NCBI GenBank assembly: GCA_013265495.1 | Contig: MU058226.1 | Span: forward strand, 334,741-398,740 | Source of the DNA: Vicugna vicugna | Taxonomy: Eukaryota | DNA length: 64,000 nucleotides | Direction: 5' to 3' | In this document: in pieces, positions 13,301 through 19,300 of the stretch | How the letters are laid out: each line of letters opens with the position of its first letter | How positions within the stretch are numbered: the stretch's first letter is position 1 | Program-made: the position numbers and the translations under genes | The notes under the pieces: model-generated | Told to the model about the DNA's origin: nothing | Databases searched by the model: none | The model's input: the letters and a program-made list of their open reading frames with translations, nothing else

Positions 13301-16300
13301 CCCCAGCAATGCATCCAGCTCTTTGGTTCGAGCACTACGGTAGTGCAGCTTCTCCTCTGAGAGGAACTGGATACAAGGGTTCAAAGCTATGGTCTTTGCA
13401 TCTCTTAGTTCTCATCCTCTCTAACCCCACCTCTAGCCCTGACCCTGATTTTTTTTTCTGCTTTGTCTCAGATCAGGCAAAGATCTAAGTAAAACTACAG
13501 AAGAGGGATCCCACGTTGGGGGGTGCTGATGGGGTAAAGCCCTCCCTCAGCTGCTGATTCACTTTCCTTATCACCCCCTACAGAGGTTGAGGGTCTCACC
13601 ATGAAGTCCAGACCCTCGATCTCAAAGTCACTGGTCTCCACCATGGAAAGCAGGCGGGGAATAGAAAGAAGGAAGCCAATCTGGGGAGAGTAAAGAAGAG
13701 ATAAAGAGGACAGTGACGCACTGGGCGCCCTCTTTCCTTACAGAAAGCCAGAGTTTCCTGTATCCCCCCGAGTGCTTCCCTCAAGGGGAATAAAGCCACC
13801 AAAAAGGTATTCATGTTCTTCAGTTTTCTCCAAGAGCTCTCTTACCTACCAATGTGTCCTTCATAAGCCTAATGTCTCCCCTTAAAAGCCCCTGGAGATT
13901 ACATCCACCCTCCTGCCCTCACCAGGGGGATGTAGATGACACTGCATGAAGGAATACGGGAATCCAGATTCTCCAGTTCTTTCTGAGCGACCTCAGTGAG
14001 GAAACTAGGAAGTCCCATCAGCCTTCGTTTTTCTAGGAGGGTGGAAGATGTATAGATATCGAAAGTAAGGTTCCCGCCCTGGTTGCTAGGTAGCTTGCTG
14101 ACTACCAAGGATAGAACCCCCTCTCCAGGCAGGCTCAGGTTTCAGAGCCCTTGGGCCCATCCGCACACCTAATACTCACTCTCATCAATTTCAGGATCTA
14201 TGTTGGGGAGGACGATGAAGCGATTTTCAGCCAGACTGCCCTCAAAGTCTACCTGAGGAGACAAGAAGTCCAGGTTCTTTCTATCCAACACCATCTCGTC
14301 CTGTTCCTCATCTCTATTTGGGCCCCAATTCACCCTGTAGTCCCTGCTTTAATCTTGACCCTCCAAGCACATCCCTGATGTTCGGCTGTCTCCTCTCACC
14401 ATCCTACCCTTTGGTCATCCAGCTGACCTCAATGTCTCCCATTCATGCCCATTCCCCAGAGCCCAGTCACTCTCTGTTATCCAAGCCCATCTCTCTCCCC
14501 CAGTTCCCCAGGAGCTCTGCTTCTTTCCTTCCACTCACCACTTTCCCAATGAGGCTGGCAATGTGGTGTAGGTCATCAGAGAACTCCTGGGCAATGTCCC
14601 TAAAGAGCTGAATGGACTGGGGCAGGGAGCGGCAGGCATCCCTCAGGCCCAGGGCACTGTACACAGTCTGTAGGAGAAATGGACAGGGAAGGGTGGCCCA
14701 TACCCAGGCCGGGCTCAGGTGAGAGAACAAGGATGGACCGAGAAGAACAAAGACTAACAGGGAAAAATACAGTAACAAAGACAGAGAGAAGACCTCAAAG
14801 GCAAAACAGTGAGAAAGAAGATGGCAGGGGAGAGTATAGCTCAGCAGTAGAGTGCCTGCTTAGCGTGCACAAAGTCCTGGGTTCAATCCCCAGTACCTCC
14901 ATTAAATAAATAAATAAATAAGTAAACCTAATACAGCCCCCCTCCCCTGGTCAGTCTGAAAGAACTCTTAATGATCTGAGCTAGAAAAATTTGAGCAAAA
15001 ATAAACAATGATAGCATCGAATTATAACTCACAAAATAAGTATTTAGGAGATTATTATACCCTGGTTATGTAAGATGTTAACATTAGGGGAAGCGGGGTG
15101 AAAGGTATATGAGAACGTTCTATACAATTTTTGCAACTTTAAAGTATTAAATTTTGTTTTTTAAACAAAAAGTTAAAACAAGAAGGGGGAATTATATCCC
15201 CTTACTCCACAAAACTATTTACATCATGCCCTTTTTATTTTAAATTTTTTGACTTATGACATCAATGGCAATTCAGCTGCTCTACGTTTTTGGAACCCAA
15301 AACCCTCTCATCTTCCTTTGGTGAGATGGAGAGACCCGCTCACTAATCAATGGGCCGGTCCTGATCCAGTTTTAATGTGGGGGAGAGGCCATGTTTGTGT
15401 TTTTCCACAGGATGCCGATACACCGCGCTGGCTCCCGGAAAGGCTGGTACGCCAGGCGGAAAAGAACACTAGTGCACAAGCTGCAACGACTTCGACTTCA
15501 AGAGAAGAGATCTCTGCCGACCGAAGCCCAAGTGCAACAATTTATTCATCAAGCGAATCAGATAGCGAAAACAACTGAAAATCCACCACTGTCGCTGAAA
15601 AGGAGGCCATAGACTTATATCATAAGGCTCCACCACAAGCAAAACAACTTGATGCGGATATTTCTGGACGACTTACAGGACAATTTTACCAAATATGGGA
15701 TCAATATATGTGGATTACCCCAGAAACTGGACAATTAACAAACCCTGCAGACATCTGTTGGGAACAAAGAGAACAGCCTTGCGGATTTAATGAAAAAACT
15801 TTGACTAAAAAAGACTGGAAATATTTGGGATATATATCCCAAAGACTTTGTAAATGGACCATAGATGTTACATTTACATGTAAAAAGCCTTTTGTATGGC
15901 CCGGTTCAGACTGGAATAATCCAGGCTATCGTTGGGTCGCACCCAATGGAACAAAATGGATCTGTGGAACTAATGTTTGGCCTTGGTTACCCTGTGGCTG
16001 GGTGGGACGCTGTACGTTGGGATTTGTTATAGCACCTGGTAAAATGTAAAATCTGTACATGGTATTCCTGCTAATATGCCTAATTTACATGCTCGATGGA
16101 TTCGATCAGCTTTCAGATGGTATGATTATCTTGCTGCTATTTTTGTTCCTTCATTAGGAAATGTTGATATTATGACTAAAGTAAATGCTTTAACTAACTT
16201 TACACAAAAAGCTTTAACTGATGTGAAGCATGCAGTTGAGGAACTAAATGCAGAGCAAAAACTTATGAGAAAAGCTGTATTACATAATAGAATGGCTCTT

Positions 16301-19300
16301 GATATTATTACAGCAGCCCAAGGAGGAACTTGTGCTATTATTAAAGTAGAATGTTGTGTGTTTATACCGGATTTTTCAAATAATATATCACAGGCAGTGG
16401 AAGATATGCAAGAGCAAATCAAAAATATGGACGCTCCTATGCCTTTCTTATCGGCACAATTGTTTGATTGGTTTAAAGGTGACTGGTGGAAACATGCTCT
16501 GGTGATTGTCATAATAATTTTGATCCTGATTTGCATGGCCCCTTGTATACTCTCCTGTTTGTCCGAGTTCTTAATGCAACGTATGCTTGCGTTCAGCCGA
16601 ATTCATCGGCATCAATGAAGAAGAGTCCGGGGCCTGGATGCATCTGCCATTCTTTAAATAAATTAAAAAGGGGGAGTTGCGGAGGGCCACTCATGACCTG
16701 AGGACTGCCGAGCACAGAGGTTGGGCCTAAACTCCCACAGTGCAGGGCGTCAGGCTCTGAGGTTGATCTCTCAAGGACAATCTCTGTCCCGCCACCCCTT
16801 TGAGGAATGTGCCAGGTGCATTAAGGCCTGAAGGAACATCCTGAGCTATCAAGTCACTAAGGACCTTTGGAAGGAGAGATACAATCGGCACGCAAGTTAG
16901 TGATCTTAGCCTGAAGAACAATCACCTGAGATAATAGTACACGAGTCACGATGTTAGCTTAGAGGAACAATACCCTAGTTTATGATCTTGGTTTCAGGAA
17001 CTTTTAATCTTAGTTTTATGAGAACTGTAAACAATAGTAAAGTCTGCAACAATATACAAGTTAATGATTTTAGTACACGTTGTTAATGTACCTTAAAACA
17101 ATACCTTTGCCTACGTGCAGGAATGTATGAGCTAATGGGTTAAAATCATATAAATTAACTGCAAGAAATAAACTCGTGGTCCACTCTTGACCTAGCATCT
17201 TGCGGGCTAGAGTGAGACCCTCTCAACCCCACCTTTTAGTCTTGTCTTTCTCAGTCCTGCAGCACAGATTTTCTGGACCTGATCGATTGTCGGCAGGCTC
17301 CGACAAGGATAAATCTTAAAATTTTTAAAAAGAAAAGGGGTATAGTACAAGGAAATACATTCAATATCTTGTAGTAGCTCATGGTGAAAAAGAATATGAA
17401 AATGAATATACGTATATTAATGTATGACGAATTGTGCTGTACACCAGAAATTGACACAACTTTGTAAACCGACTATAACTCAATAAAAGAAAGGAAGAAA
17501 GGAAGAAAGGAAGAAAGGAAGGAAGGAAGGAAGGAAGGAAGGAAGGAAGAAAGAAAGAAAGAAAGAAAGTAAGAAAGAAAGAAAGAAAGAAAGAAAGAAA
17601 GAAAAGTGTATCTACAGGTGGAGAGAGGGGAAAGGGCTAGAAGCTAGAATTAGTTGACTATACCATGTTTGGAATTGCGTAAATATTCTTTGCAATTCCT
17701 AAAGAACTAATGGACTTAGATATTAAACATCAAAGGCTGCTGACATCACAAAAGGAGAGACAGACATATCAGACGTTACGTTCCTCCATTTAACAAACAG
17801 TACTGAAGAAAAATCAAACTTGAACCTGATCAAGCTTCTAGATTCAACCATTAATTTACAGAAATTCCAGAAGAGAGAGAAACACGTCTAAAACGCGTAG
17901 GGAATGTAATCAGTGGAATTCAGGCTAAGGAAAACTCTGCAGGACACATAATCCAGCTTATTCAATAAATAACATTGCAAGGAAAAAAGATATATATAAG
18001 GAGAGAGAGAGAGAGAAAGAAAGGAAAAGGTGCAATGGAGAAGGAACCCATAAAGGAGAATTAGAGACATCATCCCATCACTATATGTTGAACATATTTG
18101 AATCCTAATTAAACAAACTGTAATTTTAAAATAATTACATTTAAGAGATGAGTAGAAATTTAAAAATGAGATAATTAATGATATTAAAGAATTACATTAT
18201 TTTTCTAGGTAAGATAATGGTATTGTTATTCTTTTATAAAAATTTTTTTTTTCAGAAATCATTCTAAAATATTTATGGATGAAATGATAAGATGGCTGGG
18301 AATTGCTTCAAAATAATCCAGGAAAAGGAAGGTGGGAGAAGATACATATGAAATAAGATTAGCATGAGTCAAAGTGTTGAAGCTCCATGGTGGGTATGTG
18401 GGGGTTCATTATATTATTTTCTCTAAAATTTTTTGACAATTTCTACAATACAAAGTTTTTATAAAAAAAAAGGTATTGAGGGAAAAAAAGGTATTGGGAT
18501 AAAGTTGGACAGGGTAATCAGAGTACAGAGGGTTTACAACACATGCTGAAGGGCTTAACCTGGACTTCTAGGATTCAAGAAGGGAGACCTTAAACAATAA
18601 GTTCATACTGTATAGCACAGGGAACTATATTCAATATCTTGTAGCAACCTATGGTGAAAAAGAATATGAAAACAAATCTATGTACATTCATGTATGACTG
18701 AAGCATTGTGCTGTACACTAGAAATTGGCACAACATTGTAAACTGACTATACTACAATAAAAACAGGAAAAAAAAAAAGGGAGACCTTACCTTGTAGAGA
18801 ACCTGCCAGTCACTGACCTTGGTGTGGGACAACTTCATGCGTTTAAGAATCAGCTACAGTCAGACAAGGAGACAGCCACTGTTTTCCTCTCCCACCCTAA
18901 CACCCCTCAAGATGCCCACCATCCCTCAACCTCCTTCCCCACCTCCCTGCCTGCCACCCTGGGCTTACAGGCACGTTCTTGATGTGACCCAGTAGTCGAT
19001 GCAGCATCTGAGCCATGTCCAGATTCTGGGGTAACAGGAAAAACTGAATGACATCCAGACGGGAATTTAGTTCCCCCAGGTCCTGAGTTGGACGTGTGAA
19101 CCATAGCCTGAAGTGAGGGTTGGAGTCGGGGGACCAGAAATTACATCTGTTCTTATCACTGTCTTGATCTCAATTTGTGAAAATGTGTATTTGGAGGTCT
19201 CTGGGGATTGTGGCAACGTGTACCTGCACTGGTAAGTACAGTGTCCTATCTATGCAGGTGGGTTCACTTACATCTACTGAAAATCTTTGGAGAGCACGAC

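Follow-up and report, generated by a model that had tools for sequence, protein, structure and literature searches.

A vicuña proviral remnant joining a JSRV-like integrase and env leader to a syncytin-Rum1-clade envelope

The element and its host intron

We analyzed 64,000 nucleotides of the Vicugna vicugna genome (GCA_013265495.1, contig MU058226.1, positions 334,741 to 398,740, forward strand; this whole stretch is called the window here, and coordinates count from its first letter). On its plus strand, at 15177-17305, sequence reading identifies a proviral remnant composed of an integrase tail, an envelope gene (env), a polypurine tract (PPT), and one long terminal repeat (LTR), which together make up the 3' third of a provirus. 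The remnant is a mosaic, resembling jaagsiekte sheep retrovirus (JSRV), a lung-tumor virus, from 15177 to ~15555, the clade of envelopes around syncytin-Rum1, a placental gene of cattle and sheep, from ~15600 to 16618, and JSRV again from ~16660, and the same mosaic is present in other camelid copies. It lies antisense inside an intron (14669..18790, minus strand) of a MutS-family gene, whose flanking minus-strand exons, bordering the intron at ~18791 and ~14668, join in frame across GT-AG borders. A MutS_V domain match and a neighboring Suppressor_APC match fit MSH5 beside SAPCD1, the gene names following established synteny, and we read the host gene by context as MSH5, in agreement with an earlier note on this DNA.

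A betaretroviral integrase

The 3' end of pol (15177..15578, plus strand) comprises the end of the integrase core, the C-terminal domain, and a Ser/Thr-rich tail, with a 5' break near 15177. This piece matches PF00552 (E = 1e-22), gives no match to PF18697, the C-terminal integrase family of murine leukemia virus (MLV) type, and has its best Protein Data Bank (PDB) match at E = 1.5e-25, to a chain that we take to be the integrase of mouse mammary tumor virus (MMTV). A search that returned 54 proteins among 87 candidates placed it at 88% identity to the gene model P0016, 64 to 68% to four JSRV-group genomes (L005-L008, 92 to 96% identical to ovine enJSRV Pol), and 64% to simian retrovirus 4 (SRV-4). 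In an integrase tree of 53 rows and 101 columns (short rows P0066, P0067, and P0069 left out, one row added), the window paired with P0016 (support 100/98). This pair falls in a clade of 18 rows (98/91) whose members include JSRV/enJSRV and also P0018, in which a pol is linked to a beta-type transmembrane subunit (TM). The integrase tail is thus betaretroviral, as the earlier note had proposed from a motif that lies at 15327-15407. A longer pol tree (29 rows, 406 columns, covering 395 residues), with P0016 standing in as proxy for the window family, recovered P0016 as sister to JSRV/enJSRV (95/90), with SRV-4, SRV-5, DrERV, armadillo, and Antechinus rows in a separate clade (97/99). P0016 itself encodes the reverse transcriptase (RT) thumb, where it starts, then RNase H, integrase, and a stretch of surface subunit (SU) that is 100% identical to the alpaca env P0001 over 63 residues. 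Viral contigs scanned with the window integrase and with an env alignment gave no match. The 18-row clade also contains the pol of a cluster of baleen-whale records (P0046), whose beta-type envs carry a different arginine-rich leader.

A gamma-type surface and transmembrane subunit

The env core has a different source. The C-terminal part of a gamma-type SU occupies 15597..16105 on the plus strand, up to an RWIR cleavage-like site, and contains the SU motifs that the earlier note had listed (QIWD at 15690, ICWEQR at 15753, and the APNGT...CTLG block at 15939-16022). The TM follows at 16106..16618, so that its start, previously put at 16076, moves to near 16106, after the RWIR site. It matches TLV_coat (E = 5e-14), finds its best PDB match in syncytin-2 (E = 1e-10), and carries the immunosuppressive domain (ISD) LHNRMALD at 16280-16303, the CX6CC motif CAIIKVECC at 16331-16357, and a membrane anchor at ~16496-16552, all on the plus strand; its earlier assignment to the gamma type is borne out. 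A 612-aa deer beta env (P0155), the CERV beta1 env homolog listed in Table 2 of PMC8877266 in that paper's available text, served as a control; it has CX7C and no ISD, and neither it nor the beta env P0018 gives a TM that can be aligned with that of the window.

Searching with the TM gave 15 proteins out of 266 candidates, with identities of 85 to 88% to alpaca (88% to the alpaca env P0133), 76% to camel (partial), 67% to musk deer (partial), 60 to 63% to syncytin-Rum1, 62% to hippo, and 54 to 57% to syncytin-Car1. Over SU and TM the alpaca and camel copies are closest (76 to 95%), the window SU being 95% identical to residues 169-318 of P0133; the alpaca envs by themselves span 85 to 95%, as befits a camelid host. 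The TM tree, built without the unalignable P0155 and P0018, groups the window with alpaca and camel copies (97/97), and a tree of the whole SU-TM, rooted on Car1, unites camelid, hippo, musk deer, one further, and Rum1 envs in one clade (97/98), with P0012/P0014 as its sister. Among named envs, syncytin-Rum1 and then syncytin-Car1 are closest to the env core; "PABLB-like," the affinity first suggested for it, occurs only as NCBI labels on relatives. On the metagenome contig L001, one of four loci found, an env of the P0012 type follows an MLV-type integrase (PF18697, E = 5e-13) and lacks a leader. This is the class I home that one would expect for the env clade, and L001 serves as a control that reveals the class of the donor. 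No env search returned an env of Mason-Pfizer monkey virus (MPMV) or SRV, the nearest being Rum1/Car1-like.

Some candidate relatives were set aside. The membrane anchor matches a JSRV-group env (39%, E = 6e-6), a likeness that is likely compositional, since Rum1 scores 114 there versus 42 for a beta env. The other three loci (L002-L004), metagenome contigs whose env, of the same broad type, is short and lacks much of SU, were too distant (33%) to be used. Musk deer (Moschus P0009, P0176, P0178, and P0010) has several envs of the same clade; P0009 stops short of the anchor, and its N-terminal part contains two hydrophobic stretches.

A JSRV-type env leader

The env ATG lies at 15412, inside the integrase tail, behind a predicted splice acceptor (15400..15411, plus strand), and opens a 62-residue leader (15412..15597, plus strand) that overlaps the tail in another frame and that the earlier description had overlooked. 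The acceptor-plus-ATG context is the same in all four JSRV-group genomes (L005-L008). The first 48 env residues are 47 to 49% identical to the env signal peptides of these genomes (E ~1e-12), and a pairwise comparison with the JSRV-type signal peptide gave 24 identities over 49 positions (E = 5e-15); identity is 54% to the deer beta env P0155 and 65% to alpaca P0133. In JSRV the env signal peptide is the regulator Rej, and the Rej-response element and constitutive transport element (CTE) sit at the env 3' end, according to the available text of PMC3185594. Homology to Rej extends to the arginine-rich N terminus, and 13 of the 62 leader residues are K or R.

An exhaustive scan of 1.84 billion proteins with the leader gave 10 matches, 7 of which are retroviral env starts. 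They lead into a beta-type SU in deer P0143 and P0144 and also in P0140, and into a Rum1-type SU, by BLAST, in P0138 and P0142, with P0136 and P0137 assigned likewise by eye only; the remaining three (P0139, P0141, and P0145) are repetitive proteins and were dropped as chance. A word-index search with the leader of the Camelus env P0008 found only P0008 itself among 29 candidates.

In P0133 the join can be located. Sliding scores for residues 1-40 are 99 against P0155 versus 23 against Rum1, and for residues 61-100 they are 101 against Rum1 versus 23 against P0155, so that the switch from beta to Rum1 falls between residues 41 and 61. About 80 residues of JSRV type precede the mature-SU motif in P0133, whereas gamma-type Env signal peptides are described as short and cell-like, about 21 to 64 aa, in the accessible part of PMC9967133. 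A partial leader in the hippo env matches the camelid leader (38%, E = 3e-6). Moschus N termini differ among records (P0009, P0176) and do not match the leader, and we therefore do not count these envs as leader bearing.

Constraint differs along the leader. Codons 1-15 are constrained in both frames (12 of 15 in env and 11 of 15 in pol against L006), and their overlap with the integrase domain required that they be kept. Over codons 16-48, a stretch that runs past the end of JSRV pol, env-frame likeness exceeds pol-frame likeness (BLOSUM 24 to 34 versus -6 to 16 per block), a pattern that fits selection on the leader itself. A hydrophobic register at position 20, with spacing like that of a nuclear export signal (NES), is kept in 8 of 9 leaders.

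Polypurine tract and LTR

About 42 nt separate the env stop from the PPT (16661..16677, plus strand), with no Rfam or fold signal for a CTE in that interval, and the PPT/U3 start aligns with those of L006 and L008. The 3' LTR (16678..17305, plus strand; 628 bp, TG...CA, imperfect terminal inverted repeat) has TATAAA at 17149 and AATAAA at 17167, a distance of 18 nt versus 17 nt in three JSRV-group genomes (L006-L008), which upholds the view that this short spacing is betaretroviral; the repeat region (R) is given as 11 bp in MMTV and ~70 bp in gammaretroviruses in the available text of PMC3601003. A JSRV-like U5 block lies at 17216-17255 on the plus strand (E = 4e-4).

The same join in other copies

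At the DNA level the likeness is to JSRV up to ~15480 and to L001 at ~15600-16430, after which short blocks at the PPT/U3 start and within U5 again resemble JSRV. The alpaca protein P0133 (XP_072813421.1, Vicugna pacos) is an unbroken 512-aa env open reading frame (ORF) with leader, CWVC, RWTR, ISD-CX6CC, and anchor; four further alpaca env records are partial (P0001, P0002, P0134, and P0135, those of P0002 and P0135 having adjacent accession numbers). Leader and gamma core also form one ORF in Camelus (P0008/P0130). The P0008 cluster (XP_010953408.2, XP_032325345.1, and XP_032325346.1) is an env ORF of 460 to 467 aa that ends before the membrane anchor and differs by two residues between Camelus bactrianus and C. 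ferus, making its product a candidate secreted Env; NCBI files the C. ferus form under WDR73 isoforms. An AlphaFold model of P0008 was too poor for use (predicted local distance difference test [pLDDT] score of 38), and a search of the ESM Atlas gave only unrelated matches below 0.9. Because the same leader and gamma-core fusion occurs in P0133 and the Camelus ORF, and because P0016 links pol to SU, the chimera is a trait of the lineage and not an accident of this locus.

State of the copy in the window

In the window copy the 5' LTR, gag, pro with its dUTPase, RT, and the tRNA-Lys primer site are all missing, and a second LTR is absent from the whole 64-kb window. Measured against P0133, its env falls into three pieces, each in a frame of its own, that correspond to residues 1-59, 169-318, and 319-506: a deletion of ~109 codons near 15597 has removed residues 60-168, which hold the signal core and the beginning of SU with its CWVC, and a second frame break lies near 16046. 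The N-terminal SU CXXC is thus deleted here, and it is present as CWVC in P0133, P0008, and P0005. This deletion and frame break, on which the earlier description was silent, mean that the copy cannot encode Env, and the locus is an ordinary dead proviral fragment. The idea that the MSH5-intron env is a captured, working host gene draws on the two syncytins among its close kin and on SU and TM pieces that each run without internal stops over 150 to 190 codons, and it is refuted for a full Env protein by the lost signal core and CWVC, the two frame changes, and the missing 5' LTR, which leave it hardly credible. As an antisense LTR in an intron, the element could be at most a candidate regulatory element. 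In a sequencing-run search with the element, 18 of 24 rows held 0.38 to 0.55 of its words, under six organism codes and at a level where the locus and its paralogs cannot be distinguished, and no RNA data set was among the runs listed.

The 5' break (15174-15193) falls on a purine run within integrase, with 80% likeness to the polypurine tract of the element itself (16659-16678). No target-site duplication was found for the element, and a later deletion and a one-ended integration are not separable as causes of the 5' loss. Two related 3' fragments at 17340-17505 and 18610-18779, presumably L1-like, are 75 to 84% alike, and the first passes into a GGAA/GAAA microsatellite immediately past the LTR. 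Two tRNA-Ala-derived repeats (14836-14906 and 33235-33312), 83% alike, look like the camelid short interspersed element.

Origin of the chimera

We read the element as a defective, 5'-truncated copy in which a JSRV/ENTV-like (enzootic nasal tumor virus) integrase, leader, PPT, and U5 are combined with a syncytin-Rum1-clade SU-TM, descended from a recombinant betaretrovirus through two crossovers and with a leader that was likely both signal peptide and Rej-like regulator; we put the probability of this reading at roughly 80%. Template switching between co-packaged genomes would have brought a class I SU-TM cassette into a JSRV-related virus, with one crossover at about env codons 45-65 and the other near the env stop or PPT. 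The recombinant would have entered cells through a disulfide-linked gamma-type Env, its retained leader would have served as signal peptide and likely as Rej-like regulator, and it would have spread through the germline in camelids. The separate pol and env phylogenies that the earlier note had called for assign the two parts to different sources, the integrase to JSRV and the TM and SU to the Rum1-clade envs, and, with the same join in P0133, P0008, and P0016, they sustain its proposal of a lineage-level beta/gamma recombinant that has an env of the PABLB-like clade and is distinct from type D. Its description of the event as an env swap holds for the gamma SU-TM on a beta backbone and fails for the env as a whole, of which the first 48 residues are the kept JSRV-type leader.

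Several points weigh against parts of this reading. On the pol side, P0016 is a predicted spliced gene model, the backbone is read from the integrase and 3' pol, no full provirus of the family having been seen, the topology test described below is modest and used a group chosen after the tree had been inspected, and the LTR resembles JSRV in short blocks only. On the leader side, NES-like spacing is missing from the intact alpaca ORF P0133, basic residues in the window leader cluster no more than in shuffles (p = 0.22), and the hippo leader has no direct match to JSRV. The region that holds the JSRV Rej-response element and CTE falls within the swapped cassette and is not JSRV-like in the window; folding of the env 3' end and LTR gave no stable RNA structure (z = -0.24, and a lowest z of -1.83 in 23 windows), and an Rfam search for an RNA element gave one chance match only.

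The strongest alternative keeps the recombinant lineage and makes the leader a passenger, retained for the integrase overlap, the splice acceptor, the start codon, and signal function, with Rej activity lost together with the old env 3' end. The double constraint on codons 1-15 favors it, as do the position of the JSRV response element in the replaced part (as given in the available text of PMC3185594), the lack of a folded element and of the alpaca NES-like spacing just described, and the fact that syncytin-Rum1 is fusogenic with a short leader. The env-frame similarity that runs on to codon 48, beyond the end of JSRV pol, and the hydrophobic register in 8 of 9 leaders speak against it. On balance the passenger explanation is a serious contender that falls somewhat short of even odds, and that the retained leader has Rej-like activity, in Gag translation or in export of unspliced RNA, appears to us evenly poised; a cognate Rej element may lie in U3.

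Much less probable is an offshoot of the type-D recombination (MPMV/SRV, Hayward group VIII) followed by a gamma-for-gamma env exchange. Type-D viruses do combine a beta backbone with a gamma env, and SRV-4 integrase is 64% identical to that of the window. Yet pol groups with JSRV and not with type D, and forcing P0016 into the type-D-related clade, a group named after the tree was seen, cost 26.7 log units (p-AU = 0.033 in the approximately unbiased [AU] test); the MLV-type TM of one type-D-like element (P0057) is only 32% identical to the window TM; and the window family carries a JSRV-type leader, in contrast to group VIII, for which a loss of Rev-like proteins is argued in the accessible part of PMC3621094. 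Two separate insertions that became nested or fused at the locus after integration could account for a deletion exactly at the leader/SU join and for the missing 5' end; this outcome, which the earlier note had named as a refutation, is excluded in substance, because leader and gamma core are one ORF in P0133 and P0008 (and leader and gamma SU in P0138 and P0142), pol and SU are linked in P0016, no LTR or repeat between the parts was found in the window, and JSRV-like sequence stands on both sides of the cassette.

Comparison with known viruses and envelopes

With JSRV, ENTV, enJSRV, and deer CERV beta1 (Hayward group VI), the window family shares a sister pol, the acceptor and ATG context, a Rej-type leader, the TATA-AATAAA spacing, and the PPT/U3 start and U5 blocks. 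It differs in having a gamma-type SU-TM (ISD, CX6CC) instead of a beta-type env (CX7C, no ISD) and an LTR of 628 bp versus the ~300 nt given for the group in the available part of PMC3621094. With the type-D viruses MPMV, SRV, squirrel monkey retrovirus (SMRV), and DrERV, and with the armadillo chimera (group VIII, with an env of the RD114-and-D-type-retrovirus [RDR] kind), it shares a beta backbone onto which recombination brought a gamma-type env. It differs from them in its pol clade, in an env from the Rum1/Car1/PABLB-like clade, and in a crossover inside env by which the long beta leader was retained (for group VIII, loss of the Rev-like protein is argued); the CTE that type-D viruses carry between env and PPT has no counterpart in the ~42 nt available in the window. 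The same source, in its accessible text, traces the gamma-env betaretroviruses to one event and places them in a single clade, and it reasons that an env-encoded Rev-like protein would have been lost with the swap (PMC3621094). Judged from its sequence, the present lineage looks like a second, independent gamma-env swap, on the JSRV side and with the Rev-like peptide kept.

Among envelopes, syncytin-Rum1 is ~58 to 68% identical over SU-TM, falls in the same clade, and shares CAIIKVECC, the RWxR site, and, with full-length relatives, the N-terminal CWVC. It is, however, fixed as a host gene, has a short signal, and lacks a basic leader, whereas the window copy is broken and not orthologous to it. 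Syncytin-Car1 and the ruminant class I family of L001/P0012 belong to the same wider gamma-type clade, family env identities being 44 to 57% to Car1 and 45 to 56% to P0012, and BERV-P and the HERV-R(b)/ERVPABLB-1-like envs would belong there as well; L001 has the same env type with a class I integrase and no leader.

Recombinants already described include type D, intracisternal A particle (IAP), PyERV, avian, and armadillo elements (as seen in the available parts of PMC3758190, PMC9967133, PMC4488720, PMC10536682, PMC3185594, PMC9476219, PMC13286661, PMC11831830, PMC10741562, PMC8605555, PMC3601003, PMC8877266, PMC3621094, and PMC9604959). Camelid genomes are reported to hold 410 to 679 ERV2 elements each, and such an architecture is not detailed in the accessible text of that report (PMC8605555). 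Our literature search, within the available portions of its sources, did not turn up a description of this lineage in camelids, or of a Rej-type leader on a gamma env; the supplements of PMC8605555, the ruminant consensus files of PMC11831830, Dfam/Repbase, and the original Rum1 paper may already contain this architecture.

Syncytin-Rum1 and the meaning of the lineage

The best SU-TM tree places Rum1 with the leader-bearing hippo env (85/77). A single clade of leader-bearing envs that excludes Rum1 and musk deer was rejected (p-AU = 0.0016), and the placement of Rum1 outside every leader-bearing and musk-deer row was not (p-AU = 0.15). We tentatively suggest, at rather less than even chances, that a JSRV-related virus with Rej-type leader and gamma env was widespread in even-toed ungulates (camelids, hippo, and musk-deer-like ruminants), that Rum1 was captured from it by trimming of the leader, and that camelids independently kept its envs, as the 512-aa alpaca ORF and as the anchorless ORF in two Camelus species. 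The Rum1 link may be partly known, as a 2026 review labels Rum1 "ERV class II" in a table that, in its available text, gives no basis for the label (PMC13286661). A syncytin role in camelids is made less likely by a title, in the visible reference list of PMC9476219, on mitotic polyploidization of alpaca giant cells.

Beta/gamma chimeras are already known as a general type, and the interest of this one lies in the kept leader, the independent origin on the JSRV side, and the tie to syncytin-Rum1. The lineage offers a test case for an env-encoded RNA regulator that would have survived an envelope swap and found a new RNA target. Syncytin-Rum1 gains a candidate viral parent, and the two env ORFs become capture candidates in camelids, a group from which our searches yielded no captured env.

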